This document shows positions 1-52,700 of a DNA stretch of 64,000 nt, piece by piece; within the stretch, counting starts at the first letter, position 1; each line of letters opens with the position of its first letter. The DNA is from Bilabrum cf. latius (lineage: Eukaryota). Made by a program: the position numbers and the translations under genes. The notes below the pieces were generated by a model. It had not been told where the DNA came from. It made no database searches and saw only the letters and a list, made by a program, of their open reading frames with translations. The stretch spans positions 62,001 to 126,000 of the forward strand of contig OZ237776.1 of NCBI GenBank assembly GCA_965178125.1, written 5' to 3'.

Positions 1-8
1 AGCAAACC

Positions 9-5837
<5,829 letters not shown>

Positions 5838-29104: not shown

Positions 29105-32100
29105 ATGAGAGGTATTCCGATCCTGTGGCAGGCGGCGGCAGCATGCTTCATTTGCTCCCTTTTTTCTGGGCATGCATACGACTTAGGAGAAGGTAAGATC
29201 CGATTTAATGTATATTAGAGGTTTTCCATTGACTAAAATTGTCAAATTAGTCTCGTATGGCTTTTCCGTACTTGAATCAGGCGAAAAGGACGTCCCGCGA
29301 GCCAGTTCTGTTTCAACCTCACACAGATGTTCCCATCTGTTGGAAAACATCCAGACTCGACGACGGACGGACAGTAACTGAAAAACTAGCAACGTGTCCA
29401 TCAGGTAAGACCAGTACGTGCAATCCCTTCCCCTGTGCACCTCATCCGACTGCAAGTAGATGGGGCAGCTTCACATGATTCGTTTTGTTGCAAGCGAGCA
29501 ATCGAGGCGAAAAGTTGCGCTTGGATCTATGCATAACAAGTCAATTGTCTTAGTATGCTGCGTTAATATGAATTTGATCGAGCGTACGCTTAGTTTAACC
29601 GATGGCATCAGCAGGCAGTCACGGTCTGAGTGGAAGCACTTGTGTAACCCAAGCACATACACCCATAACTTAACTTCTACATGGAACATCACCATCGCAG
29701 GGCTGGACATGGAGTACACCAAGCCGCTGCCACCATCCTTCCAGGCACTGACCGAGCAATTCGCCGTGTACACGATGACGGTTGGACTGGATAACGTGAC
29801 CTCACAAACTACGAGCAGTGGGACCGTGGAAATTCCCCACGGGAACCTACACGCTTGCGTCAGCCGCATCGGCTTTTGCACCCCGTTTGTCGCCAACACG
29901 CCGGAGCTGTCCACACACAGCCCGGCGCTGATTGGCAACTTGAGCTCAGTCCCCGGGGCAACGCACGAAGTCATCCAGTTCAATTCGTCCGTGGCGTACG
30001 ATGAGGGCACATACACGGTCATCGCCCACGGAATAGTCTTTACGAACCAGAACAAATACAAGTACGACATCGCACGGGCCATCACGGTCACCGTGACGCC
30101 CGCCCTCGCCCTCGACTGCCGCCCTGCCCCGGGCCAGTACAAGACACCTGTAGATGGGGGAACACGGATGCAGTGCGTTGATTGCCCGAGGGACACTTTC
30201 AACCTGAACGCGGACGGGGTCTGCAGGCCATGCCCCGAGGGAGCGACTTGCGATGGCGGCACCGATCTAAAGGCCATCCGGGGCTACTGGCAGGATAGGA
30301 GCTTCGGGCCAGGGGGCGACTTTGCTATTTTCAGGAGGTGCTTTCCTGAGGATATGTGCTGGTGAGTCTGACGTGCACTGCATTGCACTGCACTGCGAGC
30401 ACCGATCGATCGGATTGCGATGGCAGCACCTCCCGGTGCCTCGAGCGACCGCCGCACGCATGGCGGGCAGGCATCCTTTGCTTGCCCCGTGCACTCGCCA
30501 CACATGCGAATCACCGTACCTCTCTCTCGTCACACACCCGCAGCCCCTCCGGTGGGTGTTCCCTACCCCTGACCACCGCGGGCCCCGCTGATCTGGAGCA
30601 GGCCCAGGCGGCGGGGAGGTACGATCCCGTGCCTTTAGTCGTCACACTAAACGCAACCGAGGCTGAGTTCCCGGGGGTCGTCGAAGCGTTCGACCGCGCT
30701 GCGGATGCGTACGACGCATTGTCAGATGACGTGGTGGTAGACTCCACCGTCGCGACCTACTCCAACTACTCACTGTCTGGATGGGTCTCCAGTGACGTGT
30801 GCAGGGAAGGGCACAGAGGACCACTCTGCGCCGAGTGCGAGGCCGGTTTGGCCATGTGGGGTGACGAGTGCCAGGAGTGTGGGGGAGGGGGCAACGCATG
30901 GCTGGCAGCTGCTGTGGTGCTTGCGATTGCGCTCCTCCTCATCCTCTTTGCTTTCCAGATCCCCGGGCACTCGTCACGATTCAAGACGATCGTGGATCTG
31001 ACCCAGCTGACCTTCTTCGTCCTGAATCCATGGAGCAGCCTGCGGAATACGCTGGAGCTGACCGTCGTGTCTGTCTCATCGATCTCGACCGTGTCGCCCT
31101 GCCCAGGGCAGGTGGACTCTCTGTACAACGCAATGGGCAGCTACATGGTCACTGCAGGGCTGCTGGGGGCGGTGGTGGCCGTGTGGGCCGTGTGGTTTGG
31201 AGTCACCGGCGCGTTATGCATGGCGGGCGCCAGTCAATCCAGCAGCAGCAGCAGCAGCAGCACGGGCAAAGTGGTCCCGGCGAGCCAATCCTCCGAGGGC
31301 AAAGGGGGCAATCAGCCGAGCATGGGATCGGATCAAGGATCGGATCAGAAGCAGGCCGAGCCTATGCAGCGCATTGCAGTGCAAGCATGGGCCTCCTTGC
31401 AATCCAACGAGAGCCCAAGCGCAGGTGCAGCGCACGATGGCGCATCGAACATCCACTCTCCGGAAGACGGCAAGGCAGCCCATGCCCAGCAACTGTGGCC
31501 CAATGGAAGCTCCGGGAGCGAGCGTGCGACGATCGCCGATGCGGCAGGCCGCCTTTCCGTGTGCGAGGCGCTGTCGGGGGAGCCGATGGAACGGCTCATC
31601 TCCGCTCTCATCCGTGTTACTCTGCTGATGTTCCCAGTGGTGTTCCGGGTTGGGCTGACCCTATCCGCATGCCAGCCGCTGGGTAACACGATGGTGCTGG
31701 TGGAGGAGCCCACGGTGCGCTGCGACACGGCCCAGCACAAGGCGCTGCAGGCCGGCACGGTGGCTTTCTCGCTGGTCCTGGCCATCACACTCGTCACACT
31801 CATGGCGTGGTACCTGCACGCGCGTTTGGCCACCCTGGACGCCGTGGTGGACCACGATTTCAACACTGGCAAGGCCGCGACAGAGGACATCTCGCAAGCA
31901 GACGCGATGTCAGTGACGTCGTTCTCCGCTCCTGGGGGAATAGGGGAAGGAGGGGACGCTGCCGCTGGGTCATCATCAAACACGCAGGACGTGATCAAGG
32001 AATCGGCCCGATTCGTGCGGGTCATGCAGCTGAATTCAGAGCTGTCGATTGTCCCAGTTCTCCTGCAAAAGATGCGTCTGGTCCAGAGCAGGAGCACAGT

Positions 32101-32935
32101 GTCTCTCACTTCTTTCGAGAGAGCGTTCGGGCACCTGTTTTTGTGCTATAGGGAGGGTCTGGACTGGTACTACGAAGCTGTCACGGTGTTTCGCAGGGTG
32201 CTTGTGGGTGCCATCGCGGTGATTTTGGCCGCGCATCCCTTCCAAAGGCGGGCTGCGCTGTTCGCCTGCACAGTGGGATTCGTGCTGCTGCAGGCCACCG
32301 CGAGGCCTTATTTTCGGAAGGCGGACAACGTGGCTGGGCTTGTGGCCGTGGTCACCGTATGCTGCGTTGCAGGGCTTGAGCTCTCCGGAGGCGACTCCGC
32401 GTCTGCGGATTCTGAGGGAGCGCATCCCTACTTGGCCGCTGCCGGTGTTGCGCAGCTGACCCTGGTGATCCTTGCGGGGGTATGGGTGCTCGTTGGGCCG
32501 TGGGTTGCGCGGTGCATGTAGGAGGCGGCGGCGTGGGGCCTGGGGCATCCTGGCCGATCCAAGGCAGGTAGATCTAGTGGAGGAGGGGGTGCTGCTGCTG
32601 CAGGGTAGGGCACAGGTGACAGGATCGGTGCCACGGGTGATTATGCCGCGGCAGGCAGCACTCAGCCAGTGAATGGCGGCGGCAGCACCGGGGCGGCAGA
32701 TGCCGCCGGCGCATCGCTCTCAGGCGCCGAGGCCATCGTGCGAGCGGCGAGCGGCGGGCTTCAAATCAAGCGGGCCATCTCGAGGTTCAGGTCACGGGCC
32801 TCTGAGACTGCGCAATCGCTGCGGAACATCCAGGCGGTACCAGTAAACGCAGCTCAGATGGCATTTGCGTCAGCTGCGGGGCAGGGGTTGCAGCAGGCAG
32901 GTGGCAGTGGCAGCCCGGGTCCCGATTTATAGTAA
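29105..32935 (+). CDS. Signal-peptide, Cys-rich ectodomain, multi-pass membrane protein (~1070 aa); exons 29105-29192, 29327-29404, 29701-30361, 30544-32935
   Basis: Signal-like MRGIPILWQAAAACFICSLFSGHA. Three GT-AG introns are phase-compatible. Motifs CVDCPRDTF, CRPCPEGATCDGG...GYW, CREGHRGPLCAEC, YYEAVTVFRRV...RPY (same family style as the C-terminus of 6120-18974). In-frame TAGs at 32519, 32606 and 32930, followed by TAA at 32933. Confidence 0.8.
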
Positions 32936-34073
32936 TGCGAAGGCATAATCAGTCGGGCCTGATCCCAAGTCTTACCGACCTTGGACTCCTTCGTGCCTGC
33001 CAGCAATGGCAGTCCAGACGCGATGCCTGACAGCGGGGGCTAGGCTGAGGACGGCATAATCTGTTATAAGTGCGAGGCATAGACGACACGGGGGGGCGGG
33101 GGGGGGGGGGGGTGGCTGCGGCGGTTCAGGAAATATGATGTCTACTTTGCGCGTGGAGGTTTGGTGCAGCGTCGCCATTTGTTGCAGGCGAACTGGGCAC
33201 CCGAAATGTCGAGGCGCTGCAGCCTGCAGCTCCGCTGGCGAGGCCAATTATTTCTCTGCTGTTGCTGTCGAGGTCGCGCTTTAGGCACAATACCCTCTCG
33301 ATGTGCAGGAACGGGTACGACGCAGCGAAGCCGAGGAGAGAACGGTCGAGGGGCCAGCCAAGTGATGTGCGAGCAGGAGCGGCGGGCAAGAAGGTCTAGG
33401 GGAGAGGAGGAAGGGGGGCTAGGGTACACCATGGGTCGGAGGATCATTGGAGGATATGATTGGTGGGGCCGTCTGGTCGACACGGTAGACTAAAGACACA
33501 GACCGGGCACTGCGTGGCACTTGTGTGGGGCATCATGTAGGTGACGAGTGATCACCCGATCACCACAAGCTGATGGGAAGATTACGTAAGTCGGTCACAA
33601 TTGGACTTGAGCGGCAGTCAAGCTGCGAAGTAGCCTACTCGGGTGCTTAGGGGAACCGCTCGCCAGCTCATTCTGTTTGGCAATCTGAGATCACACGTTG
33701 TACACAGCACCCTAATCTCGCAGACAGTCACACATGGTTGCAGTTGGTTTCCTCCGAGAGCCCATCCTCAAAGTCTTGCTGGCCTCACCAACTATGCGAG
33801 GTGACAGCGATAAGCAAATCCAGGATGCCAGGGGCTGCGACCAAGATGAAATCCGATTTGAAACTGTCCTAGCACACTGATTTAATAACGGTTATAACTT
33901 CAAGTTGTACCACACTGATCCTGGATGAGGCCCAAGCCACTTGATGGAAATAAATCCATAACGTGGCCGAGCATTCCGTGGAGACATGCGAACGAAATGG
34001 TGACACGCCTTGCCTAAAACAACCCAAGGCTGTCTCTGGGACCCCATCGAGCGCTCTTGAAATCGTATGATGC

Positions 34074-37000
34074 TCAGTTGGTCTTCTTTTCCCCGCCCGC
34101 CTTGGCCTTGGCCTGCTGGCCCTCCCCCAGCCCAAGCTCCAGCACCTGCCGCATCTCGAGCAGTGCCCCGCGGAGCACCCGAACGAACCTTCGCGAATCC
34201 GTCGTGGGCGCCGACCGATTGGAAGAGATGTGGAAGAACATCTCGCCTTCCAGCTGCACCATGTAAGACACCCCGTACCCGTCAGGGGCCACGGGCCCGA
34301 AGCCGCCGCCAGGAGAGGCCATCCTGGCATCCAGGGCCGATTTCAAGTTCCACATGTTGGTCTGCTGCTGCGGCTGCTGCGACGTGCTGAGTTTCCAGGC
34401 GGTTCCTAGGGCCTGCGCCAGGAAGGGGCTCTCCACCTCCTGTCCCTTGCTCACCACGTACAGAGCAAACAGGTGCCGGTCCACGCCCTGGCCCGCCCGG
34501 GACCTTGCCGTGATGAGGCCGTGCCTCTTGGCACTCGATCGGAGCAGCTCGAGGCGCCTGAGGCCCTCCTCCGCGCTGACCCGTGAGGCATCAGATCGCA
34601 TGATCGGAGCGCCGTCCACCTCGCCCACCGCGTCCTGCCACGCGACCTGCCCCGAGCCAGAGGTGGTTCCGCTGCCGCCGGTGCCCGCCCCAACCGCGGC
34701 GCTCGCACTCGTCACACCCGCAGACTCGTCATCCGCTCCCTCCAATTTTCCATCCTCCAGCAGCCCCATGGACTCGACGAACCTTCGTGAATCCTCCGAC
34801 ACGCTCCGGATCGTCTCCGTGCGACCCTCCTTGAACACCCTCGTCACACTGGCTTCGTAGGTGTCGTCGAGCCTGCCTTGCTGGTCCCTGTAGTATGCCA
34901 GCTGAAGGGCGGCCTGCACGTAGGCATCGGGACTCACCCGGCACTTCTTCACGAAGCTCTTCCCGTAGTCGCTGAAGGAGACGACCTGCAGGTCCACGCT
35001 GTCGGATAGGCCCTTGAGGTGGCGCATCGCACTGCGGATGTCGCGCTCGGCGCCGCGCGGAAGGTGCCACTGCATCCTGCGGAACATAGGGCTGCCGTCG
35101 GAGCGGAGGCAGGAGGTCCTGGTTCCGCAATCATCCGCGGCGGCGCCGCCGGAACCACGCGAACCCGCGGCGCCGCCGGTCCCGGCGTCGAGCTCGTCGG
35201 TTCCGCTGGTGCCCTCTCTCGTCACACCCCCGTCAGATTGCGCGGCGCCGGCGGAACCACCCTTCGCCGCGTGTTCCCCGCCGCGGCCGGTCTTGATGGT
35301 GATCATCTGGTCCTTCTCCAGCATCTCGGCCTCTTGTTCCTTGGGCAGCTTGGGCCGCTTCCAAGTTGCGTTGAAGACCTGCTCCCCCTCGGCGGACCAG
35401 AGCCTCGTCTTCTCCGCTTCCCTGCAGATCGTGCCGTCCGGGTTGTACATCCCAAACCGGAACTCGGCGGTCATGCTGCCCACCTCGATGATGTGCGCCA
35501 CGGCCAGCGCATCGGCCCAGGAGTGCTCCGCGCAGTAGCCCAGGTGCCCGTCCCCGTACGCGACGATCTGGATGGACTTGTCGAACCATCGATCGGCCCC
35601 GTTCCCGTGCATCGCACTGCGGCCGCGCATGGTCCAGCTCTTCTGGTACTCGGAATCGGAAATCCCCTTCTTCTTGCTCGTCTCCCCCTCGGCCCCGTAC
35701 GTCTCCTCCGACAGCACGAGGAACAAGGAGGCGCTCTCAACCTGCTCCAGGGACCTGCGGTTGACTCCCTCCGAGAACCACTGTTCCCTGGCAGCGGCCC
35801 AGCTGGTCCTGTCCCAGCCTGTGAGCGCGGGGACGAGTCTCTCATACGCGTGGGTTCGGCGTAGGAGCCTCCCGGCAGAGGTGTTGGTCCGGCGGAGAGC
35901 GGGGGGCGCGCGTGCTGCTGGTGTCACCACCTCGCGCATGGCCTGTTCGCCTTCCTCCTCCTCGTCATCGTCATCGGCGTCGCTGTCATCATCGCTGCCT
36001 CCCGTGCTGCTGCTGCTCTTGCCCTTATCCTTGCCTCCGCGGTGCTTCTTGTGCTTGGAGTGGCCGCTCGGGGCGCCGCTGGCAGAGACCTCCGCTTCCC
36101 TGGCACCCTTGTCCTGATGCTCGTCCCGAGATCGAGACCCGGTGGCGGTGCCCACCACGGGAGTCCTTGCGTCTTCTTTTTCGGCCTTGGCTTCCGCCTC
36201 TGCGTCGGCTAGCTCGGTGGCTGCCGCGTCCTTCGCCACTGCCTCGAAGGCTGCCGCGAGCTTCGAGGGGTTTAGTAGCCTGCCAGTGCGGGCGTCCACC
36301 GTCTCGACCCTGTAGATGTAGCCCCTGCACAGCACGGCCACGTGCATGGAGTCCTCGTAGGGGTATGTGACGAGTGAGTCGGCGTCCCGGCCGGGCACGC
36401 GCGTGGTGCCGAAGGCTCTCCGGTACTGGTCCATGCACCAGGGAACAAGCCCGCCCACGCGCACGGGGCCCAGCGTTTCGTTCTCAATGGCCCTGCGGAA
36501 CCGGAGCAATCCGTGGATGGCCACAGCGGCCCTTGCCTCCCTGTTGGTGGATGGCAGCCTCCTTGCCTGGTCAAGAACGTAGTAACTCGAGTTGATGGGG
36601 AGTGCCTTGCGGTAGTGGAGGTACACGTAGGTGGTCCACCAGTCCGTGCAGTAGTTTGAAGAGGTCCACCACTTGAGCCTGAGATACCTCTGCAGCTTTG
36701 GACCCTCCTGAGTCAGGAATGCGTCGGCCTTGGCTTGCAGAGCCTCCCTGTCCTTGGGGCTTGTGATCACGGCTCGCGCGCTCTCCAGGTACCGTGATAC
36801 GGTATCTTCCAAGGGGGGCAACGGTAGCGGGGGCAGCACGCTCTGGTAAGAAAAGGTCAGGGGGCGGCCGAACCCCGAGAGAAGCTTCACCAGCACGGCC
36901 CACGTCTTGGACCAGAGAGTGGCCTGTCCGTGGCCGAGGAACATGTACCCCGTCCATGACAAAAGTGCACGCAACAATAGCCGCTGCACGGAGGCGACGA

Positions 37001-37394
37001 GGATGGCACCCAGGACCGCGGCCCACGCCGCCAGCACGCCCACTTTCACGGCAAGGGGCACGCCGGGCACCCAGGGGAACTGCTCGCCGATCCACCAGAT
37101 GGCGTGTGCCAGCCACCCGTTCCGCCACCATGACCCGCTTTCGGCCCTGACCACGACCGTGATGACGAGTGCGACCACGATCAAAAAGACGGCCCAGCCC
37201 CATGGGAACACGGCGTTGTAGATCCACCGGCGCCAGCTGTCTGCGTACCGCACGGTCGCTCGCAGGGCTTTGCGCGGGGGCGGGACGGTGACCGTGCAGG
37301 CAAGGTGCAGTCCACCGTCGTCGAGTTGAAGGCGCATGGCACGTTTGCCATGGCCGATGCGCGGCAGGTCCTGGATGTTGTGTGCTTCCGCCAT
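34074..37394 (-). CDS. Carnitine O-palmitoyltransferase 1-like (1106 aa) with low-complexity insertions
   Basis: N-terminal MAEAH, two TM segments, SYQSVLPPLPLPPLEDTVSRYLES, RWFDKS, catalytic EHSWADA, SPDAYVQAALQLAYY, TYEAS..R.F..GRTETIR, GVDRHLFAL, LSTSQ, GGGFGPVAPDGYGVSY; TGA stop; no internal TAG. Confidence 0.95.
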   Translation of the reverse strand: MAEAHNIQDLPRIGHGKRAMRLQLDDGGLHLACTVTVPPPRKALRATVRYADSWRRWIYNAVFPWGWAVFLIVVALVITVVVRAESGSWWRNGWLAHAIWWIGEQFPWVPGVPLAVKVGVLAAWAAVLGAILVASVQRLLLRALLSWTGYMFLGHGQATLWSKTWAVLVKLLSGFGRPLTFSYQSVLPPLPLPPLEDTVSRYLESARAVITSPKDREALQAKADAFLTQEGPKLQRYLRLKWWTSSNYCTDWWTTYVYLHYRKALPINSSYYVLDQARRLPSTNREARAAVAIHGLLRFRRAIENETLGPVRVGGLVPWCMDQYRRAFGTTRVPGRDADSLVTYPYEDSMHVAVLCRGYIYRVETVDARTGRLLNPSKLAAAFEAVAKDAAATELADAEAEAKAEKEDARTPVVGTATGSRSRDEHQDKGAREAEVSASGAPSGHSKHKKHRGGKDKGKSSSSTGGSDDDSDADDDDEEEEGEQAMREVVTPAARAPPALRRTNTSAGRLLRRTHAYERLVPALTGWDRTSWAAAREQWFSEGVNRRSLEQVESASLFLVLSEETYGAEGETSKKKGISDSEYQKSWTMRGRSAMHGNGADRWFDKSIQIVAYGDGHLGYCAEHSWADALAVAHIIEVGSMTAEFRFGMYNPDGTICREAEKTRLWSAEGEQVFNATWKRPKLPKEQEAEMLEKDQMITIKTGRGGEHAAKGGSAGAAQSDGGVTREGTSGTDELDAGTGGAAGSRGSGGAAADDCGTRTSCLRSDGSPMFRRMQWHLPRGAERDIRSAMRHLKGLSDSVDLQVVSFSDYGKSFVKKCRVSPDAYVQAALQLAYYRDQQGRLDDTYEASVTRVFKEGRTETIRSVSEDSRRFVESMGLLEDGKLEGADDESAGVTSASAAVGAGTGGSGTTSGSGQVAWQDAVGEVDGAPIMRSDASRVSAEEGLRRLELLRSSAKRHGLITARSRAGQGVDRHLFALYVVSKGQEVESPFLAQALGTAWKLSTSQQPQQQTNMWNLKSALDARMASPGGGFGPVAPDGYGVSYMVQLEGEMFFHISSNRSAPTTDSRRFVRVLRGALLEMRQVLELGLGEGQQAKAKAGGEKKTN

Positions 37395-38235
37395 GGTGCT
37401 TGTGCTTGGGTTGGAGTTGCTTTAAAAAAACGCTCGTTTTCGTGAGCAGCGCTGGATTCGGGCTTGCGCTGTGCAAGATGCAGTGCCTGCAATGTTTTCA
37501 AAAGGCAAGAATGAGCGGTCCAAATATCATCAGCAGCAATTCACTCGGTTCAAGCCAGAGCCAAACGTTCTGAGACAGAAGACGAACTGATGCGAATGCA
37601 GTCAAAGGTCATTACAGCAATAAAATCGTGACTGAAGCGGCGGATTCCCAGAACATGACTAGCCATACATACCATTGGATCATGATGTTGTGCATTAATC
37701 GCCTCTGGCTCGACACAAAGCGGCCAAAACGTAGCATCGATGACTCGGCGAAAAGATACGTTCCATCACTCAAGCAGCAAATACTCTTCCAAAAGCGACT
37801 AATACAGAGCACCAACACGACAAATGCACGTTAAATATATTGAGTACTATAATGACACGAATTGAGACGGACCACCAGCATAGACTATGCCTGGCACAGG
37901 CCCACTGCAACTGAATGCGCACCACTGCAACTCTCAACTCCGATCTTGCAAGTTTACCAGCAGCCTTCATTCGGGTGCAAACAACCCACCCACCACTACA
38001 TAACTATACAATTAACTGGCTTACCTAGTATTAGAATTCTATATGAATGGTGCAACTGTACAGGGCAAGAAGTGTGACGGGACCGATTGGGCTTTGGAAT
38101 CACACTGTACAAATGCACGGAAATCTGCATTCCGGATTGGTGGCCGGCAAACAAACATCAAGGACCAACAGAAACGACACCAAGTGTTTCCAACTTTAGA
38201 TAAGTTAAGCATTGTTTGAATTATTCATATAAAAT
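37395..38235. promoter_or_regulatory. Divergent (bidirectional) promoter region between the CPT1-like gene and GrpE
   Basis: AT-richer interval between head-to-head starts; two GATTGG (reverse CCAAT) elements at 38085-38090 and 38135-38140. Function is inferred from position only. Confidence 0.4.
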
Positions 38236-39147
38236 ATGGCATCTGCACGAAGAGCAATGCAGAGGACTATGACGGCCTGCAGCCGAGGTGTTCTGGGACT
38301 GCAGCGCATGCGTATCGCTCAGACCGGCCTGATGGCAGCAAGCCAGCCCGTGCTGCGGCTTGTGAGCCCCATAAGAATGCCAAGCCAGAGCGAGTTGCAC
38401 GCGAGTGCCGTGGCACTGCAGTCGCAGCAGGCAGGAGGAGCTGCATCCGCGGCTGGCGGGGCGCAGGGTTCCGGCGAAGCCGCCGCTTCGCAAGACGGGT
38501 CGTCCACCGTCGCCGCAGAAGGCGAGGACGCAGATACAATTAGTTCTTCAACAGAGGGATCTGATACCGCATCGGCAGCACCAGCATCTACCTCTTCCGA
38601 AGAAACGAGCAAGGCCGAGGATGCGGACGACAGCAATGACGTGGACGTGCTTCACGCCCGCATCCAAGAGCTGGAGGGCGAGCTGGAAGAGGCCAAGAAC
38701 GGGCGATTAAGGGCGCTTGCAGACGCGGAGACGACCCGCCGGATCGCCCAGAAGGACGTGGAGATGGCCAAGAATTTTTCCATTCAGAAGTTCGCCAAGC
38801 AGCTGCTCGACGTGTCCGACAACCTCCAGAGGGCACTGGACCACGTCCCGGAGGAACACGTGGAGCCAGAGGATGCCGAGCCTGGGCCCGCGAGGAGCCT
38901 GGGACTGCTCCGCAGTGGCGTGTCGGCGACGCGGTCCGAGCTGCACCGCGTGTTCAAGGGTCAGGGGATCGAGGAGTTCGGCGAGGTGGGGGAGGCTTTC
39001 GACCCCAACAGGCACGAGGCGATGTTCATGGAGGCTGTGGAGGAGGGGAAGGAGCCGGGGTCCGTGACCCAGCTGCTGCAGACGGGCTTCACGTTCAAAG
39101 AAAGGGTGCTTCGACCGGCCAAGGTGGCTGCCACCCCGGATGAATGA
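38236..39147 (+). CDS. GrpE: Mitochondrial GrpE nucleotide-exchange factor (303 aa)
   Basis: Arg-rich, acid-free N-terminal presequence; RLRALADAE, SIQKFAKQLLDVSDNLQRAL, GEAFDPNRHEAMF, GFTFKERVLRPAKV; TGA stop. Confidence 0.95.
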   Translation: MASARRAMQRTMTACSRGVLGLQRMRIAQTGLMAASQPVLRLVSPIRMPSQSELHASAVALQSQQAGGAASAAGGAQGSGEAAASQDGSSTVAAEGEDADTISSSTEGSDTASAAPASTSSEETSKAEDADDSNDVDVLHARIQELEGELEEAKNGRLRALADAETTRRIAQKDVEMAKNFSIQKFAKQLLDVSDNLQRALDHVPEEHVEPEDAEPGPARSLGLLRSGVSATRSELHRVFKGQGIEEFGEVGEAFDPNRHEAMFMEAVEEGKEPGSVTQLLQTGFTFKERVLRPAKVAATPDE

Positions 39148-39443
39148 GACGGGCGAGAAGGAGAAGAGCAGCAGATCGACAGGAAGGAGCAAGGAACGGC
39201 CGTGGGGGAGGGCTCCTGGCGCCGGCATCTTGTCTTTTCGCATGGGAAGCCCTAGAAATGTTAAGGGTTCGGGGCAAATTGCCCCCTTGTTTGGTGAATG
39301 AGAGCAAATAATCTTGTACAGTTCGTCGTTCAGCGAACCAGGCGAACGTTCATATACGCGTGCTAACGGATCGAACTTTTTCGCCGCGGTTTCAGGTCAA
39401 ATAGTTGCTTGTGCTCTGAACTTGTATATATTCTGGAATACAC

Positions 39444-41227
39444 ATGCGAAGCTCGGGCCTCTCGAGAGCCGGGTCGTCCTTGGTTGGCACCAGAGGGAGA
39501 GGGCGAGAATCCAGCGGGGCCGCGAAGAATCCATTTGCGCTTCCATCCGAGGAAGAGTTCGGGCAGTTGCGGGAGAAGGAACGCGAAGAGAAAATACGAG
39601 TGAGATCAGTGAAAGATGTGCACCATTTGCTGACATAGCCGATCGGATTGTCAACAGCACTTCTACAAGTACGATTCAATGTCGAGTGCCATCGCCCACC
39701 TTTTCTCTGCAGGCCCGAGAGGAGTTGAGCCGAAAGAAAGTATGGGAGAAGCTGCCATCGACGCACCGTACAGGGAGAATCAAGCGGTTGACCGAAGCTG
39801 ACGTCCCGGTGAGGGACGAGACTGCCCGGGAGCAGATTGCTCGCACGCAGCGCCTCGTGGCTTCCGCCACCCAGGCCATGGGCGTGGGAGGCCGCCGGCC
39901 TGGGGACCGAGAAAGCATAGGAGCATTTCTTTCCAAGAAGCGCGAGATGTTTCTCGTTCAGATGTCCCTGGACACCAAGAGGGAAGAGATTCAGAAACTG
40001 GAGCGCAAGGCCCAGCTCAAGGAAGAAGCGCTCAAGAAATCCGAGGTCATGCTGGAGGAAGACGCGATCAGGTTCGACGCGTTTCTAAAGGAAAACGACA
40101 AGGAAGCATTCCAGGCCCTGAAGCAGGCCGAGGCAGAAACGAAGAAGAAGCAGGAAGCGCTCCAGCGCATCAAACGCCTTCGTCACACCATCAACGCGCT
40201 CTCCACGGAGACAGCCAAGATCCGGGACAGCCTCAAAGCATGCAAGCGATACAAGTCCTTCCTGGACTCGTTGACAGACGAGTCATGGCTGCAGGAGCGG
40301 CGGCAGGAGAAGCGGCAGAGGCAGGAGGAAAGAAGGAGGGCGCGGCTGGTGGAGCGGCAGTCCGCCTGGGAGCAGGTGCGACAGAGGAAAGAGACGGAGG
40401 TTAGGAAATACGCCAGGCAAGAGAGACAAAAGGCGCTCAGGGACGGGGAACAGCCCCCCAACTTCGACATCCCTGCCATGGTGCTATCGGAGGTACCCCC
40501 CAGGCCCACGGACGCCGACGAGCCGCTCACTTCCAGCGGGGAAGACCTGCCCATGTACTTCGTGAGGCCGGGTCAGCTCCTGGAAAAATTCGCTAGGAAA
40601 GAAGCGGAGAACCTCAGCCTGATCCAGCAGGCCCAGGGAACAGAGCAGCAGCTGGAGGAGCTGCGGGCGCAGCACCGCGAGATCAGGGCCGTGGCAGAGG
40701 CGCAGCAAACGGCCCAGCAATCGAGCCTGAAATCGCTCAAGGGATAGATCGTCTCAGAGGCGCGAAGGGGGGACGCGTTGGCTCGGCGGGCCGCGGTGAC
40801 CGGCGGGTCTGCGGCTCAGGCCCGTCTGCTCAGCAAGCTCGGCCGCAAGATCGAGACCGTGCACGACGCGTGCGTGGGGGCTCAGGCCAGCAAGCCCACC
40901 AGGATCGGTATGCTCACTCGCCTTGAGGGCGAGCTGGAGCACCTGCTCGAGGACATCTCCAAGATTCCGAAGGAGTACGTTGAGAGGCAGGAGGACGCCC
41001 TGGAGAAGACTAGGAGGGAGCACAGGGTCAAGGAGAGGAAGGCGGAGCAGGCCAGATTGCAGCAGGAGAGGCTGGCGCGGTCGGTGGCGAGGTCCGATGC
41101 ACCGGTGCAGAAACGCGCCACCAAACCGGTCATGTGGAGGAGCCGGCCGCCCGTGAAGAAGGTCAAGGAGGAGGCGCCCGACCCTGCGAGGCTGCAGGAA
41201 CTGGAAGACCTCAAGTTCTTGACGTGA
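39444..41227 (+). CDS. CFAP100: Cilia- and flagella-associated protein 100 (CCDC37)-like (~556 aa); exons 39444-39599 and 39713-41227; in-frame TAG at 40745
   Basis: NPFALPSEEEF; FLSKKREMFLVQMSLDTKREEIQKLE...LEEDAIRFDAFLKEND; LPMYFVRPGQLLEKF...ENLSLIQ; MLTRLEGELEHLL; KPVMWRSRPP. Intron GTGAG...CTGCAG at 39600-39712. Confidence 0.88.
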
Positions 41228-41839
41228 TGATGATAAGAACAGTATGCTGTTTTCTTTCCTGGCAGCTCTTAATGCGCTCGTGCCGTTCAGGTGCCCGATT
41301 CAGGGACTGGATCACTCGCCGGAGGTTCCGCTGCCAGCGAAAATTGCGCGGCGGCAGGCGTGCTCAGCCTCGTAGCATTTGCAGATCGTGGGCTGTGTGA
41401 TGTGCGTTTCGCGGCGATATGTTAAGTTACTAACACATTTGCCGTTGCAGATTGATTCGTTCCAGGAGGGTTATGGTGAATCTGAAATGTCGTATCGTCA
41501 GAATCAGTCGGGATTGCTCGAGAGCCTCGAGCCTCCAGGCCCCTTCCAACAGACGAGCGCGCGACACACTCCAGGTCTCAGTGCAACGGCTTGCACATCT
41601 CGCAACAGTGCATTTCTGAGGACACAACCACCCCCCCCCCCCCCCCCCCCACCACCAGCTGCATCCTCGCACAACCCCTCACGTGACGCCTACCCTTCCC
41701 ACGCCACGCATCGTGCCTCCCACGCTCTCATCTCACGGCCTGCCCCAACCGTGGTGGTCCAACGCGCACCACCCCCCATGACTGTCTCACCACCCCCCAT
41801 GACTCTATCACGTAAAAAACGCGAGCAAAAGCCCCACAC

Positions 41840-44800
41840 TTACCACCTCATCGGAGGCTGGGCGAAGACCTCTGCGTCGAAAGCGTCACTGTACCCGGAG
41901 AAGAACATGGTGCCATCGGCCGTGCTTGCGATGCCGGTCTTCTTGGTAGGATCACCACCTGGCATGCACTCCACTGATTCGATCAGCCGCAAGGTGCCCG
42001 TCGGTAGGTGAACCATGTGAACCTTTGTGACTGAGTCCGATCTCGATTGCTTGGCGCAGAATGAGAGCACCTGGGTGGCAGCCGAGTAGTGCAGCGGGCC
42101 GTACCACCCGCCAGATAAGATCTTGGAGTACTCGATCGGCGGGGTTGTTTCAAGCACCTCCGGCGTAGTCATGTTGCGGTTCCAGAAGAGGATCTTGTGG
42201 TTGTTTGCGCCATAGGGCTGCATCCGGAAAAAGACGCCGAAGTCGGTGGCGACCATGTAGTACAGGTCATTGTACTAGCTGTTCGTCCATGAGAACGGGA
42301 TGAAGTCGACCTCACCTGTAGAGGGGCTGTAGGTCATGAGACCGCGGTTCGTGGTCGACTGAACGTTGTTGGTCCGGTTCATCGAGGGGTCGGTCACGTT
42401 CTCCCCGGGCATGACCACGAGCCCGTCGTAGAGTGCGATCGAGTGCTGCAGGGCCCCGTACTACGCGGCGAGCTCGGGGATTAGCTTCGATTCGCCCGTC
42501 ACTGTATCGACCCTGTAGAGTCTGTTGTACGACGTGGTACCGCCGGGGGTACCGTCAGTGTTGTACTTCTCTGCATTAGCTCGCACGATGATGTCGCCGC
42601 TGCCATCACCGGCAGGAACGGCCCCGGTAAAAAATCGATTGGAGAAGTCGGGCGAGCCGATCATGCTGACCGATCCATTCTTGGTGACGATGAAGGGCTG
42701 GTTACTTTTGCTCGGGTACTGCCCCTGAGCCACGAATGCCCCACCGACAATCTACCCTGCGTACGGGGACACGTTCTCCTTGAATCCCGCTGGGGTCGCG
42801 TCGATAGTCTCAGATGATCCGTCGGCCCAGTTGATCTTGACCAGGGTATTAGAGCCCGAATTCAACCACACGCTGCCATCGCCCTCGCCCGTGGCAGTCG
42901 AGAAATTGCACGTGACGGGCAGAATGGATGTCGACTGTGGGTAGTTGGACAGTTTGGTCCAGTGTCCAGTGGAGTTGAACCTCCCGATCACGTTGCCCTC
43001 GTTCGAAGAGAAGTAGGCGGCGATGATGCTATCATCCGGGCCGTTGCACAGCGTCCTTGGGCTAGAGTCACCGGTCCTGACAGGCTCGCCCTGTGCCTCG
43101 AGCTCAACCGTGGTGAAGGTCCCACCGTCCTCGAACGCGTTTACCACGGTGCCCACGGACTCTGTCGTGTCGGTGATGAAGTAGAACGAGTCCGTCGCGC
43201 CGTCGAAGCTGTTGCTGCCCACACCCGCGGCCTCTGAAAAGAAGTACGTCAGTGGCGTCGTTGAACTTGCGGCGCTTTGGAGCTTGGTAGCCGCAGTAGT
43301 GGTTCCATCCATCGTGGCTCTCGCTAACGTGTGTGCCCCATCTGCCTCCTTTAAAGAGAAGTAGACGCGCGTGCCAAGGCAGGCCATGTTGTTCGCTGGG
43401 TCGTCCTTGAATCCGCTGAACGCGTTTGTCGGCCCGTGCACGGACTCGCCTGCGCCCATGGTGACGTCTGCCCAGCTGGTGTGAGTGGAATCCAGCGAGA
43501 GGATGTAGTTTACCTTGTTGAATCTGTGCATGACCACAAGGTAGTCGTTGCATACAAGCCCCGGTGCTATGGACTGGATATTAGCCGGCTAACCAGCGAC
43601 CACCGCGGTGAAGGTGCCGTCCGACGGCTTGTAGCTTGCCAGCTTGGGCAAGTATGGGTTGTCGGCACTCGAATGCAGGTAGAAACGGTCCTGGAACCAC
43701 ATGAGGCCGCTCGCATATTTGCCAAGGTCTGTTTCCGCTTGAAGGTCGTAGCTGCCGGATGACGGCACGACGCTCACCAGTTCCAGGTCCGGAACGTTCG
43801 GGAGGGGTGCATTGCCTTCGCCGACGGCATTCTTCCTGCGCATCGCGTACAGCTCGTCACTTCCAGAGACAGCCATGCTGCGGAATTCGTTGTTAAACCC
43901 GTACGTGCCATTGATTCGCGCCTCTACGCTCAGCGTGTCGTCCTGGGGATCGAGCTTCATCGTGTACAGGCCCTGCATTGAGTTGGGGTTCGGCACCATG
44001 AGGCCGATGGCAGCCACCTGCAGGCCAGCCTGGTCATTTCCTTGGAACGCAGCCAGGCTTGATGGCTCCACCTTGAACGTGTCCGATTCGTCGTTCATCT
44101 TGATGAAGGTCGACGGCAGGTCTCCGTCGTTCTCTGGCTCGCCCCACCGCAGCTCCGAGGTGTCAGCGGCAGAAACTGTGAACACCGCCAGGTGGTAGTT
44201 GGCAGTCACCACCGTGACCTCCCTCCCGGATGGCGTGTCCGTGCCCACAATGCGAAGAGCAAGATCCCCGCGGTGGTCCCTGGGACCCGCGTTGGGCGCG
44301 TAGGTCCCCGTGATGAACGACTCGTTGTACGGGAGAATCCCGTCGTTCTTGTCAATGCGCCTGAATTCCGGGAGATTGTCTGGTGAATCGGGGTGGACGT
44401 ACCTGAAGTAGGTTGAGTCGTGGTGCGTGAACAGGGTCTTCATGCGGCCGTAGACGCCCAGGCTGTTCATATCCTTGGTGAGGAAGGGCGTCGCCAAGGC
44501 CGACGGCGAAGCCGACGGTGAAACCGACGCGCTCGGGGTGGCCGATGGAGTGATGCTGGGGCTCGGGCTGTTGCTGGGCGTGCTGCTGCTGCTCGGAGTC
44601 GGGCTGTTGGATGGCGATGCACTGATACTCGGGCTGTTGGATGGCGAGGCAGTGATGCTGGGGCTCGGGCTGTTGCTGGGCGTGATGCTGCTGCTCGGGG
44701 TCGGGCTGTTGGACGGCGAGGCAGTGATGCTGGGGCTCGGGCTGTTGCTTGGCGTGCTGCTGCTGCTTGGAGTCGGGCTGTTCGATGGCGAGGCTGTGAT

Positions 44801-46732: not shown

Positions 46733-49700
46733 TCAGACGGGGCTCAGCCCCACCATGCAGTGCATCCTCTCCACCCAGCTCCCCCCGAACCCCATAGCAA
46801 TCAGGCTCTCGTGGGCCGCGCGCCCCACCGCGGCCTGTCCCAAGGGCACACCGTACAGGGCGCAACCCCCCCCCGTCTGCGCCAGGCAAACCCCCGCCGC
46901 CTCCACCGCAGTGCCCTGCACCAGCGCATCACCCGCACTCGTCACACCCTCCACAATAAGCTCCGCCCCTGCCCTGGCCCCCTCCAGCCTGGACCGGACC
47001 TCCACCTCGGCACGAATCGCCTCGATCGATGCCGCCATGGCCCCTGCCCGTTGTGCCCTCGCGCACGCACTCGCGCACTGGTCCTCAGAGGTAAAGGAGC
47101 CGAGAGCTTGCAGCCTCATCGCCTCTGCCTTGACCGCCAGCAGAACGGCCGTCCCGTTGGAAAGCCAGGCTTCCACCGGGCCGCGCCTCAGGCCAGTGGA
47201 CAGGTGAACGGATAGCTCGCGGCCAGCCAGCAGGTTCCCGTCGATGTCCACCACCTCGTGCGCCAAACCGGAAATGCCCTCGATCGCCCGAGCAAGAGCG
47301 TGACCCACGGATCGGAGCGCCCAATCCACCGATGGATGCGCGGGCGCCGGCCCGTCGGCCACCACCTCCCCACCGTCCCCGTGGTACCCCAGCCCGGCGA
47401 TGGCGTGGGCCATGATCTCGTTCTCCTCCGAGAGCTCCTCTCCGCTGAGATCCAGCGCAGCCAGCTCGTCGAGACACGTGCACGCCAGGCCATCAAGCTC
47501 GGCGCCTTCCGTCTGCTCCGGCAGCTCTGCGGGGATCGACGGCAGGGAGCCGTTGCCCCAAAGGGGCATCGATTCGCCCATCCTGAGCTCAACGGCTAGT
47601 TTTGAGACCCTCCAGTCGTCGCCTGGTGCGATCCTCGGCCTCAGCACTGTGTCTTGTTCCCTGTCGCACTGCAGCGCCACCTAGATCGGAGTCGATGATG
47701 CCTCACCGGGCACCTCCTCGCCCTCGTCGTCGGCTCCAGGGAACACAAGGGCGTGACCCTGCGACTGGGGCACCCGTCGGGCCGTGCTCTCCAGCAGCTG
47801 CATCGCATTGCGGGCGTCCTCAACGGCACCCGCCGCCGCGTCGCCCAGCAGATCGACCTGCCCCTGAAGCGCGTCAGCAACCGCCTGTGCCCTACCCAGG
47901 CTCGTCTCCCCGCCCGCCCAAGGCTCCGCCAGCAACACCCCAGGGGTGCCTCCGACGGCGATTGATGCCGCCCGCATCATGGCCTGCTGCCTCGACCCGC
48001 TGCCCAGAGTGCCCACTGGCCTCAGCGAGAAACGGTCCGCGCTCGCTGCGGAACTGGCGCCGCGCATCCAGAGGAAGGTGCCCTGTCCGCCGCTAGGTGC
48101 AGCACCGACGTGCAGTGCACCCTGCTCCGCCAGCGCCTGCTCCGTGATCGCCTCTTCCGTCGCAAGCTGGCCCTGCCCGCTGCCCGCCCCGGCTGCGTGC
48201 TCGATCAGGCGGGCGAGGGCAAGCGCGGTGGCATTCGCGTCTGGAAGGTGCGCGCAAGCCGTGCGGTTGGCGGACCTGCCCTGCCCGAGCAATCCACGCC
48301 CGCACGCGTGCTTGAGCCCAAGCACCTCGAGCACCTCGTCGTGGTCGTGCGCTCCGATGGCTGCAGTCCCCGACTCGGTGCTCGCGTTGGGTGCACCGCC
48401 TTGCAGCGCGCCGCTCTCCAGACCGGCCTGCAGCAGCACGCTCGCCCATCTAGATCGGACCGACGCGATCGCCCGGGAGTGGGCCGCTGCCGTGCTTGGC
48501 GCGGTTGCAACCAGCACGCCGAGCGACGACGATGATGATGACGAATGCGATGAGTGTGGGACGGCCAACGGAGCGATGGGCACCGCCGACTGCGATCCAC
48601 CGGTGGATTCCCTCGCAGCCGTCCTCCTCCTGGACTCGAGCTCCTGCGGGGACATGCCATTCAGCTGAGAGACCAGATGTCCCGGTGGGCTGGCTTGGTC
48701 TGTCAGCAGGACGGTGGCTCTGTACTGTTCCCTGTGGGCGGTGGCATTGGGCTGGTTGGGCGGGAGGGGCAGCACGGCAGGCGCTGGCAGGCACGCGGGT
48801 ACGAACCGTTCCGCGTAAAAACCTTGCGTCATACGGTCAATGACGCGGAAGCGGCCCAGCGGCACATGCGGCACCCTGAAGTTCCTCTGCTCCGCCCCCG
48901 GCTCTACCCATCCCACCGATGTGAAGCTGGTCACTAGCGAACCCATCACGCTGCGAGCGGGCACGACTGCCATCGCACCAGCGGGTACGTTGTTCGGGCG
49001 AGATATGCCGGCGTCACGGACGGTAGAAGCCACGAGGAGCTTGCTGCTGGCTGGTGTCCTGGCGCTCCCCGGCTGTGCCACCACGCTGGCGTTCCAGCCA
49101 CCCCCGTCGCTCGGATCGAATCCACCGGTGGACTGGCTGCTGGGCAAACCCTTGCAGGGCGCGCTTCCGGTATCGCACCCGGGACCCTCACCGAACCCGG
49201 TCGGCTTGGGCACCGCCAGCCCGGCGTGGCCTCCGTCTGCCAGCGGCACGGGAACTCGTCGCGTGCACGCGATCCACCCATCGGAGGCCCTGTCGTTGGT
49301 GCCGCCGCGCAGGTAGAAATCAGGCACCTTGGATGCCGCCGGATCGCCCTGCACTGCGCACCCCGCGTCCTGCATGTGGGTCTCCATGCACGTGGTCTCG
49401 TCCCCCGAACTAGCCGTTGAGCTTGCGCACGTGCCCGCCGATGGTAGCTGCCCCAGAGCCTCGAGCTCTGGCAGCCCGCTATCCCGCACCGAGGGCATGG
49501 GTTGCGGCCTGCCGTCGCACAGCCCGCACGCGGCTACCTCCGGCATCCAGTTCTGTGACGGCCCAGGGGAAGGTCCTGCTGCTAGGCTCCATGCCGGACC
49601 GCGCCTGTCCTCCCCAGCGGCGGGAATCTCCACTGTCTGCGGCCCGATCATGGATGCGTTGGACAGCCCGGGCCCGCCGGCCGTGGCTCCCACAAGCAAA

Positions 49701-52700
49701 GACCAGCGGTAGGCCGATTCGTTGAACTGGGGCTGGTGGGCCTGATCGCCCTCACCCGTCCAATCGACGGGACTCACGGCGAGGGCCCGGCCCAACTCGC
49801 TGGTCGTCAGACTTCCACCGGTTGCAACCGGTGGTGTGGGCAGCTGCGCGCCGCCCATGGCGTGCATCATCGGCTGCCAGCTCAGCGCACTCGTCACGAT
49901 GCGCCCGTCGGATGGGTCCACATGCATCGAGACGGTCGCGGCCGCCACCGTTCCGTTGTTCCCCGCCGGTCCTCTGTTCCCCGGAGCGGTTGCAACCAGT
50001 CCCAGGGTCAGCCGGCCGTCGGGCAGCCGGGCGGAGCCCAGCCCGGCGAGGGCAGTGCCAATGCGGGAGGACCCCGAGAGCGGCACGCGCTGCGGCAAAT
50101 CGCCCCGAACCTCCACGAGGTTCGCGCCAAAGGTTCGCTAGGACTGGCGCACCGTGACGAGTGCCACGGTTCCGTTGTTGGAATCCATTCCAGGGGCGCC
50201 GATCGCCAGCACGGGGAGGTGGCCGGTCCCGGGATTGAGACCCGCCACTGCGAGCGACGCGCCGAATTGCGCCCCGGCGGCATCGAACGCGCTGCCGGAC
50301 ACCGGTTGCAACCGTTTGCTGCCAAGGTACATGACCCAGTCGTTCCGGGCCCGCAGCGTCATCAGATACACGTACCCGGGCCCTGTGTCACCAGAAGATC
50401 CCGCGCCCACTGCGAGCAAGGACACACCCTCCTCTGCATTGTTGGGTCCAGCAGGCACCGATGCCAGTGATACCCCGAGCAGCCCGTCGGTCGGCAAGCC
50501 CTGAAGCTCGGCAGGCGCTGTTCCCTCGTCCAATGCGTCAGTGCTTTGGAAGAACCTGGGGCTTGCATCGGATGACATGGCCGCGAGTGGATGCCCGCCC
50601 TCGTCGGTTGTAAGGTGCAGCTTCACAAATACCAGATTGCCCTGGCCCGCGGCGAGTGGAGAACCGATTGCCACCCACACGCCGCTGCCCGACGGGCGGC
50701 CGTTGCTATCGACCGGCCGGCCAAGGCTGGCGATGGCAGCCCCGAAGCGAAATCCCGCGGCTACCGCGCTGTCCCATAGGGTCGCCGAGGCAGGCGCCAG
50801 GTCGTGCAGACCCTCGCCGAAAACGCGAGCCGTTTGGAACGGTGCCGTTGGAGTGGTCCGATGCAGTACTGCGATCCTTGACGTCGTGGGGCTGCCGGTG
50901 ACAAGCCACTGCCCCGCCGGGATCGATCGAACGAGATTGTCCACCCTGGTCGACCTGGCCAAACCCGTGGTAGGATCCACCTGCTCTCCGATGAACGCCA
51001 TGGCCGCACCAAAATCGTCCTCGGTGGCTAGCTGCGTCCCATTGGGATGGCCACCCACTGCAGGCATTCTCTAGACGGGGCGCATGAACCCAGCGAGACT
51101 CCTGACCTCGGGTGACAGCCTCTATGATGGGTCGATGGGACCAAGCTCGCCCAGCCTCTGGCCAGAAGTGATGGGTCTGGCTGCGCCCATCCTGCTGCCT
51201 AGCGGCGCGAGGTCGCCGGTTTGGCCACCGAAGTACTGCAGCTAGGTCGCATCGGGGGCCAGGGCATACGCAAACGCTCCGTCCCTGGCTGCAATGTCCT
51301 CGTAGACCACCGCCCCTACAGCACCAGGAGCCGAGACAACCATGCCCGGGTTGGCCGCAATCAGTGGCATCGCATTGCCGGGAACGCCACAGGCGGTAGG
51401 GTGTCCAAAGTCGTACAGCATAGACAGATCCCTGGGCAGAGTGCCCCTGTGCACCTTGGATCCGAGCCGACGGTTGTACAGAGCCAGCACCTGTGTCGGC
51501 GATGGGCCCGGTCCTGACCAGCCCCTTAGTTCTCCGATCTCGCCCATAAAAGATCCAACGGACGGCGCCGCGCGGCGAGGAACGTTCCCTGCGGGTTCGG
51601 CGTCTAGCTCGGTCCCGGCGGAGGGGTTCACGTCACATTCGCGTGCGTCCACGCCAGCGGGCCGGGCGCCGATGATCGGCACCAGGGTGATGTTCCTTGC
51701 TTCCGGATGCCTGGCGCTCGCGTCGGGCAGCTTGAGGGAGCCAAGAGGACTGCCCGCCGGTATGGCCACCCTAGTGGATCCACTCGTCACACCGGGGGAC
51801 TGTCCCAGCCAGGACGCCTCCGGCCACCCGTCCACGTACAGCCTGACCAGCTGCTGATCGGCCCGTTGTTCCCTGGGGAACACGAAAGCCAAGTGATGCC
51901 AGTGCCCATCGGCCACGGACCGATCCCCAACGAACCTCCAGCGAAGGTTCGCTGACATGGCCCCGGAGCCGTTGGTGGCCGCCAGCTCCAGCTCGGGCTT
52001 GCCCTCGTCGTCCAGCCCGAAGTGGATGAAGCCCATGCGGGAGGGAAGTGCAGCGCACGACGGCACGTGCCCGTCCACAGGAAGATTCGAGTAGATGCTG
52101 CCGCCTGCACTCGCCTCACCCGTCGAGCCAGCGCGCGAGCTGCTCCAGTCCACCGCCCGGGAATCCACCCGGACATGCGCCTCGATCGCGGACAGAGGGC
52201 CCCGGCCCTGAGGCAGCCCACTCGTCACCAGCACAGGGGCCTCTAGACCGTCCCTCCCCATGGGCGCCCAGCTGCCCTCGCCCTCCCTTTGCAGGCGGTT
52301 CTCCACGCGCCCCTGCTACCTCTTCCGGTTTCCACGCTGGGGAACTGCGCCGTGGCGCTGGGTCTCCTGCGTGACGAGTGCGCCGGACATGTTCTGCCTG
52401 GGCGAAGCGAGCTGGCCGGGCAAGGGTGGGCTTTGGGGCGCAAAGGCCTTGGAAATGAGGGGAGGTGGGAGCTGTCTCGCCGGTCCCTGCATCTGCTGCA
52501 GCACGGACGTGTCCAGTCCCGGGATCGATTCCCGGAGGCGGTCTACCGCCGTGGACCCGCAGACCTCGGCCGGCCCTTCGATGCCACCTAGGGGGCTGCA
52601 CTGTAGCTTAGCGGGCGAACCGACTGATACCAGACTAGCGGAACCACGCGTGCCGTCGCATTCAAACTGCGCGGCGCCGGGGCTGGACGGAACCACCTTT

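Follow-up and report, generated by a model that had tools for sequence, protein, structure and literature searches.

A genetic code that assigns UAG to glutamine (Gln) and keeps UAA as a stop has already been described in other eukaryotes. In the fornicate Iotanema spirale, UAG encodes Gln, UAA and UGA are the stops, and a CUA-anticodon tRNA has been predicted (PMC5304391). The phyllopharyngean ciliates Hartmannula sinica and Trochilia petrani likewise read UAG as Gln with UAA as a stop, a code termed 'translation table 15' (PMC11687900), and Protocruzia tuzeti, cited in the same work, shares it (PMC11687900; PMC10089648). The present analysis concerns a 64,000-nucleotide stretch of DNA (G000:C42:62001-126000, hereafter the window) from a GC-rich assembly of 48.6 Mb in 111 contigs, for which a sequence-only reading, silent on these precedents, had proposed that UAA is uncoupled from UAG and remains a stop. 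Codon usage across the assembly indicates that its nuclear genome very probably reads UAG as Gln and uses UAA and UGA as its sole stops; this is the known code 15, apparently of independent origin.

The described systems differ from this genome in several respects. Iotanema belongs to an unrelated supergroup and its main stop is UAA, whereas here it is UGA (24/33 recognizable C-termini; 88/104 gene ends in a blind census); its eRF1 carries T32G, whereas T32 is retained here; and the available text identifies no tRNA but predicts an origin from tRNA-Gln(CUG) (PMC5304391), whereas here the tRNA is found and is closest to tRNA-Tyr. Hartmannula and Trochilia are ciliates that stop predominantly at UAA, and no suppressor tRNA is reported as detected in the available parts of that study; in contrast, the genome examined here is GC-rich, and both a CUA tRNA and eRF1 have been identified in it. 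Organisms using table 6 (Tetrahymena, Paramecium, hexamitins and ulvophytes) are alike in reading UAG as Gln with a tRNA-Gln(CUA), but they also read UAA as Gln through a UUA tRNA, whereas in the present genome UAA serves as a stop and the scans revealed no UUA tRNA. The rhizarian exLh and the phyllopharyngean TARA metagenome-assembled genomes (MAGs) that use table 16 also split UAG from UAA, but assign it to leucine (Leu); CUA suppressors in two of these MAGs come from tRNAs already specific for the amino acid they carry, and the eRF1 of exLh is altered at Leu69, the position of an L69Q change here. Finally, crAss-like phages with code 15 read TAG as Gln and stop at TAA and TGA, as here, but these are phage genes in bacterial translation with RF1/RF2, unlike the present case (PMC9523058). 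No stramenopile or bicosoecid nuclear case was found in the main text of open-licence papers and bioRxiv preprints.

Sense and stop use of UAG, UAA and UGA

The assignment of UAG was examined in the genes for ten dynein heavy chains, taken as 20 frames of 46,876 codons in all, which contain 134 TAG, 194 CAA and 1,813 CAG codons and neither TAA nor TGA. In-frame TAG occurs in all ten of these genes and in the sole eRF1 gene. When the 102 aligned dynein TAG codons are scored against a profile built from those 104 homologues, among 120 listed, that passed a length filter, the summed column likelihood is 21.3 for Gln and -93.7 for the runner-up, glutamate (Glu), a gap of 115 log units. At dynein columns conserved at 90%, TAG (n=20) faces Gln 11 times, Glu 5 times and other residues 4 times, and CAA (n=21) faces Gln 15 times. 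Similarly, where one dynein is compared with its Cafeteria homologue, TAG lies opposite Gln at 4 of 7 positions in the conserved C-terminal part, with one at a Glu column, and one TAG of the eRF1 gene falls at a column occupied by Gln in 108/110 homologues.

A blind test gave the same picture. The window plus eight blocks of 50 kb, drawn from eight contigs (464 kb in total), were segmented with a Markov model under a penalty identical for TAA, TAG and TGA, and the 77,570 inner codons of the called segments include 214 TAG, no TAA and a single TGA. The median coding score downstream of TAG is 4.1 (n=161), close to the 3.8 found downstream of CAA (n=301), whereas coding is lost downstream of TAA (-8.9; n=5 past the filter) and TGA (-7.9; n=40). 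TAG makes up about 6% of Gln codons in both the dyneins and the blind sample and is absent from the two main actins and from histones; it would thus be a minor Gln codon, in keeping with the single-copy CUA tRNA described below. As a separate observation, three lone internal TGA codons were encountered, one inside a called coding segment (position 10923 of the C8:400001 block, plus strand), one in an actin-family match (G000:C29:39955-41193) and one in a histone-fold match (G000:C3:224594-224722). They probably reflect introns or frame shifts, though selenocysteine may be an alternative.

The lack of TAA is far greater than base composition predicts. If TAG counts are scaled by the A/G ratios of synonymous codons, 11-14 TAA are expected in the dyneins and none is observed (P 1e-5 to 6e-7), and 19-41 are expected in the blind sample, again with none observed (P <=6e-9). 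Since the dynein frames reach the conserved C-terminus, this lack is not merely a product of frame cutting. Moreover, TAA closes conserved genes: the recognizable C-termini of 33 genes end with TGA in 24 cases, TAA in nine and TAG in none. These comprise 16 dynein ends (TAA 3, TGA 13; 17 loci were printed, one of them not at the end), 16 distinct actin-family and histone genes (TAA 5, TGA 11) and eRF1, so that the genes ending with TAA are those for eRF1, histones H4 and H2A, an H3, an actin, an actin-related protein and 3/16 dyneins. In one actin and one H3, TAA stands at the residue where paralogues carry TGA, and the histone H4 gene closes with TAA at its invariant terminus. Among 104 gene ends in the blind census, 88 are TGA and 16 TAA, the latter being an upper bound because many sit in a GTAA context, a possible splice donor (12/17 TAA frame ends). 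UGA therefore acts as the principal terminator, with no sense use in the dyneins and one instance in the 77,570 inner codons. The search for in-frame TAA at conserved Gln columns, which the sequence-only reading had named as the refuting test, was thus negative in both the dyneins and the blind sample, and together with the count of terminal codons in conserved genes it upholds the proposal that UAA is still a stop. It may be added that TGA recurs in frame within <=3 codons after the stop at 15/312 triplets (4.8%), against 2.1% out of frame, and selection for tandem UGA at the 104 sampled gene ends is possible.

These counts bear directly on the possibility that the genome uses the ordinary table 6, with UAA and UAG both meaning Gln and TAA too rare to be seen. 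A-ending codons are indeed scarce in this GC-rich genome (TTA 35/46,876), the GTAA context frequent at TAA frame ends could be a splice donor, and the two window sites cited by the sequence-only reading are compatible with table 6. Nevertheless, even the lowest A/G ratios examined predict 11 TAA in the dyneins and 19 in the blind sample where none occurs; histones, actin, the actin-related protein, eRF1 and the three dyneins terminate at TAA; and no UUA tRNA was found in the scans made. Table 6 is therefore already refuted in the sample examined, and its chance of holding at all is regarded as vanishingly small.

The CUA-anticodon tRNA and its possible origin

The CUA-anticodon tRNA that the sequence-only reading predicted is encoded by one nuclear gene (G000:C23:907607-907679, minus strand; Rfam, 69.8 bits), present in single copy, with a cloverleaf fold and a downstream T run. 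The tRNA family scan scored 63/780 candidates and yielded 48 Rfam matches, all of which were typed, and pattern scans were added. A UUA anticodon, which had also been proposed as a search target, occurs in 0/48 Rfam matches and in none of the pattern-scan matches examined, these scans being ones that miss intron-bearing or odd-armed tRNAs. The first pattern scan returned three matches, namely the CUA tRNA and two mitochondrial tRNAs; the second returned 54, of which 50 were examined (three repeated strings and one mitochondrial lysine (Lys) tRNA were left out) and only threonine (Thr), Lys and proline (Pro) tRNAs passed; and the third returned 43, of which seven were examined, and its two matches with a UUA-like word proved to be tRNAs for Lys and Pro whose register was shifted. 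Other candidates were discarded: three sub-threshold 'Stop(tta)' calls by ARAGORN at a relaxed score (L106, L123 and L125) have no Rfam match at the gathering score, and two pattern hits in the register of the CUA tRNA (C34:139373 and C35:364566) are not recognized as tRNAs by ARAGORN or Rfam (E 0.1).

In global alignment, the CUA tRNA is identical to tRNA-Tyr(GUA) (G000:C1:272024-272096, plus strand) at 50/73 positions, versus 39-42 for the Gln tRNAs. The two share 6/7 acceptor and 4/5 anticodon-stem pairs, both differences being compensatory, as well as C1:G72 and a 5-nt variable loop. Across 31 tRNAs compared by stems (Phe and Ser were left out; His, Asp and Leu were not found), this acceptor plus anticodon-stem score of 10/12 exceeds the best of 438 tRNA pairs for different amino acids, 8/12. 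Over all four stems the CUA tRNA matches tRNA-Tyr at 14/21 pairs, versus 8, 10 and 9 for tRNA-Trp(CCA), tRNA-Glu(CUC) and tRNA-Lys, which were rejected as sources. Other comparisons speak against a Tyr origin: 14/21 is reached by 6/438 pairs, the D stem of the CUA tRNA equals that of tRNA-Gln(UUG) at 4/4 pairs, the two Gln tRNAs themselves share just 9/21 stem pairs, and the usual eukaryotic tRNA-Gln(CUG) has D and anticodon arms similar to those of the CUA tRNA. On balance, derivation of the CUA tRNA from tRNA-Tyr is regarded as slightly more probable than not.

The putative identity elements of the tRNA may point to Gln. In the available table of determinants, the eukaryotic Tyr set is A73, C1-G72 and G34, and the bacterial Gln set is G73, G2-C71 and G10, the eukaryotic Gln row being blank (PMC9976931, Table 1). 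The CUA tRNA carries G73, G2:C71 and G10, has C at position 34 and is without A73 and G34, a combination that fits a Tyr scaffold relabelled for Gln. Together with the codon columns, these elements suggest that it is charged with Gln. The acceptor and anticodon-stem pairs shared with tRNA-Tyr, including the C1-G72 determinant, could instead be taken to mean that UAG is read as Tyr or as a mixture of Gln and Tyr. However, none of the 20 TAG codons at 90%-conserved dynein columns lies opposite Tyr or Phe, Tyr is outside the five best-scoring residues, and two of the three Tyr determinants are missing; a Tyr or mixed reading is accordingly considered highly improbable.

In the likeliest scheme, the CUA tRNA would be charged with Gln and decode UAG alone, sparing UAA because C34 forms no pair with the A in that codon. 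In line with this, the CUA tRNA of Tetrahymena suppresses UAG only, according to the available parts of two reports (PMC11687900; PMC10553269). G73, G2:C71 and the Gln-type D stem would direct the tRNA to glutaminyl-tRNA synthetase (GlnRS) and away from tyrosyl-tRNA synthetase (TyrRS). Along a Tyr-origin route, a single G34-to-C change in a duplicated tRNA-Tyr would give the amber anticodon, perhaps with an intermediate in which UAG meant Tyr; subsequent substitutions (A73 to G, U2:A71 to G2:C71) and acquisition of the Gln-type D stem would move it from TyrRS to GlnRS. If the CUA tRNA is Tyr-derived, UAA could therefore have stayed a stop without any UUA step, and the case would be one of stop-codon capture via changed tRNA identity. 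The composite claim, that no stramenopile before this one was known to have a non-standard nuclear code and that its UAG decoder arose from a duplicated tRNA-Tyr rather than from a tRNA-Gln, is put forward tentatively, its odds falling just short of even.

Some other tRNA genes of the assembly are unusual. Eukaryotic tRNA-Ile usually has an AAU anticodon; the nuclear tRNA-Ile genes at G000:C32:91173-91245 and C4:952092-952164 have GAU, and Ala, Thr and Pro have A34 forms. The tRNA-Trp(CCA) at G000:C40:415005-415049 (L274) has an A31:C39 mismatch and G37, and is not among the listed Rfam matches. Additionally, three identical Met-like tRNA genes (G000:C3:1133102, C9:698618 and C25:323122) have U37 rather than A and resemble both the Met tRNAs with a four-base variable loop and tRNA-Pro(UGG).

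The release factor eRF1 and the weighing of the code

A single eRF1 gene (G000:C35:455550-457423) has four exons and 438 codons and ends with TAA; the other protein matching PF03463/PF03465 is pelota-like and was rejected as a second paralogue. Two of its 16 Gln codons are TAG, at codons 48 and 73 (L052:901-903 and 1068-1070), one of them at decoding-domain position 69; feedback control through this early pair is possible. Runs X8 and X9 were treated as RNA because their contigs join across three introns, no run being recorded as RNA. These spliced contigs join across all three eRF1 introns, leave both TAG unaltered and reach 44-54 nt beyond the eRF1 TAA, whereas run X5 is unspliced. Where covered, the eRF1 TAG show no alternative letter in four runs from three studies. 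Assembly error, pseudogene decay or RNA editing as a source of the TAG codons is thereby already excluded for eRF1; nothing was found in favor of this explanation, and, given that TAG occurs in all ten dyneins and the only eRF1 gene without matching TAA or TGA, its chance is regarded as negligible. Run X7 contains, besides, a minor alternative acceptor in intron 3 at L052:1532 (joint 1384 to 1532; depth 9.5 vs 489).

The eRF1 protein was compared with 110 of 120 listed homologues, with numbering from human chain 1dt9. It lies on a long branch (0.74), and five changes next to its motifs, G29A, N30D, I35V, S60V and K130H, are seen in 0/110 homologues. L126M occurs in 15/110, and L69Q is also present in the Protein Data Bank (PDB) chain 8ip8_bl. 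The residues G31, I62 and C127 are kept, along with eight others listed below. In the accessible parts of published tests, L69A raises readthrough, slightly more at UAG (PMC4381064); positions 55, 125 and 129 matter for G at the third position (PMC3632111); and yeast N126S, equivalent to the N129S found here, was enriched in a screen for the incorporation of amino acids outside the canonical set (PMC12440015). The change in eRF1 anticipated by the sequence-only reading thus stands insofar as the protein is divergent, but not as a loss of the main third-base contacts T32, E55 and Y125, which are intact, and the evidence is circumstantial. No single eRF1 change accounts for the code. The likeliest explanation is that a combined shift of the GTS and YxCxxxF loops would lower eRF1 activity on UAG; in this weaker step of the scheme, the single eRF1 would have become less active on UAG through several changes, with no one contact lost.

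Several observations weigh against a code in which UAG is Gln and UAA and UGA are the sole stops. At highly conserved dynein columns, Glu faces TAG at 5/20, compared with 4/21 for CAA and 10/230 for CAG, and in the divergent N-terminal part of the dynein compared with Cafeteria, TAG lies opposite Gln at 0/10 positions (CAA control 1/8). The tRNA set is incomplete, because 63/780 candidates were scored and His, Asp and Leu tRNAs were not recovered, and the scans would pass over any UUA tRNA that has an intron or an unusual T arm. eRF1 retains T32, S33, E55, N61, K63, S70, Y125 and F131; L69Q and N129S are not unique to it (3/110 and 11/110 homologues); and, in the available text of the respective studies, which cover human and yeast tests, neither N30A (PMC4381064) nor changes at S60 (PMC3632111) had a significant effect. 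Additionally, TAG is mildly enriched before stops, making up 13/1,040 of the ten final codons of genes but 0.28% of internal ones, and it immediately precedes the stop at 3/104 gene ends, where 0.3-0.7 are expected (window 32930-32935; C15:250001 block positions 8062 and 32394).

The last of these points, together with the kept third-base contacts of eRF1, is what would be expected if UAG had a dual role, Gln internally and a stop at some ends as in Condylostoma, so that the window gene known as the 29105 gene would end at its TAG. However, TAG closes 0/33 recognizable C-termini; it shows neither depletion near ends nor an excess 11-40 codons upstream of stops (18/356, against 29/677 for CAA); and 4 of the 13 tail TAG come from one duplicated gene, CAA being raised in gene tails as well (8/1,040). 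A dual UAG is thus judged unlikely, although it is the least improbable of the alternatives considered. The TAG excess directly before stops, as at 32930, is probably due to relic tandem stops whose TAG, under code 15, now contributes a terminal Gln, and some residual termination at UAG may persist.

Genes of the window, placement of the genome and significance

Long frames appear in the window once TAG is read as sense, and short ones fuse, as in the 4,288-codon frame at 18986-6120. The sequence-only reading had cited two sites, both of which exist and terminate long frames that are open with TAG as sense. The first, TTA TAG TAA at 32927..32935 (plus strand), would read Leu-Gln-stop under the inferred code and closes the last exon of the 29105 gene (30544..32935, plus strand), a predicted membrane protein with in-frame TAG at 32519, 32606 and 32930 and TAA at 32933-32935; a trial chain of upstream exons gave no open frame, leaving the 5' structure of this gene unconfirmed. 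The TAA at 32933 is weak evidence because the tail in which it stands behind a TAG is not conserved, and readthrough would extend the frame by just 9 codons before a TGA. The second, TGA TGA TGA TAA at 41225..41236 (plus strand), is uninformative on the code because its first TGA is the stop and the TAA at 41234, preceded by three TGA, is never read; tandem runs of >=3 TGA/TAA triplets are frequent whatever the frame, with 38 overlapping matches across the 464 kb. The two sites were accordingly rejected as proof of the code and the claim was tested outside the window, where only genome-wide evidence lifts UAA as a stop above chance. Within the window, the reported absence of TAA from coding sequence was reproduced (0 inside called coding sequence), whereas the count of eleven TGA-ended genes was not: nine clear TGA ends are seen, eight from the blind segmentation plus that of GrpE. 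Two gene ends are TAA, at 32933 and, in a splice-donor-like context on the minus strand, at 41842.

Among the other frames of the window, a CHD/SNF2 helicase frame (3..5837, plus strand) has 8 TAG, 0 TAA and a TGA end, and the 4,288-codon FG-GAP/TIG protein frame (6120..18986, minus strand) has 10 TAG, 0 TAA, 40 CAA and a TGA end. A carnitine O-acyltransferase gene (34074..37394, minus strand; PF00755, E 2e-145) and a GrpE gene (38236..39147, plus strand; PF01025) contain no in-frame TAG and end with TGA. The DUF4200 gene (39444..41227, plus strand) has one in-frame TAG at 40745, a TGA end and an intron at 39600-39712 predicted from the DNA sequence; its CFAP100-like label comes from the sequence-only reading, the domain match itself being PF13863. 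On the minus strand, a frame at 45862-41840 closed by TAA (stop 41840..41842, possible splice-donor context) has 6 in-frame TAG, and a 2,796-codon frame (46733..55123) has 12 TAG, 0 TAA, 17 CAA and a TGA end. Both long frames on the minus strand at 46733-63998 probably belong, as exons, to a single gene; this region and 6120-18986 (minus strand) encode very large surface-type proteins with FG-GAP, TIG and lectin domains and few introns.

Dynein, eRF1 and mitochondrial code 4 identify the genome, by sequence comparison, as that of a bicosoecid stramenopile, a Cafeteria-like flagellate that feeds on bacteria. The best of 120 listed matches to the dynein heavy chain is from Cafeteria roenbergensis (66%), with another protein also at 66% and others at <=60%. 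In a quick tree, eRF1 falls in a 10-row clade with Bicosoecida sp. CB-2014 (Shimodaira-Hasegawa-like approximate likelihood ratio test (SH-aLRT) 99), its exact place being unsure on a long branch. The 38.4 kb mitochondrial contig (G000:C111) has a UCA-anticodon tRNA and code 4 frames, two of which (808 and 419 aa) are long, AT-rich and ribosomal-protein-like; mitochondrial code 4 is described in Cafileria and Cafeteria in the available part of one report (PMC6723347). nad7 has relatives at 88-100% identity, with Cafileria at 71%. Among metagenome contigs, no relative above 72% was found across 79 loci, and the S60V form occurs in 0/72 motif matches. Because the Cafeteria roenbergensis database protein is uninterrupted, the code change would postdate the split from that species. 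A second, distinct 18S rRNA gene (G000:C95:6099-7900; L103, on a 17.9 kb contig) measures 1,802 nt, whereas that of the C12 array measures 1,700 nt; it probably comes from a different eukaryote also present in this assembly.

It is rare for a code to treat UAG and UAA differently, and, in the available parts of the cited reports, the known cases rest on transcriptomes or partial assemblies, with the Gln suppressor tRNA unfound. Here, one assembly provides codon usage, a single CUA tRNA and a single eRF1, with the standard-code Cafeteria as a close comparison. Two questions thereby become addressable: the source of a UAG-only Gln tRNA, and the way in which eRF1, its T32, E55 and Y125 being intact, can drop UAG while keeping UAA and UGA. 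Genetic code expansion would also profit from a natural eRF1 blind to amber alone. For the genome itself, annotation requires table 15, and the range of nuclear code change would grow to include stramenopiles and a genome that is GC-rich and prefers UGA.

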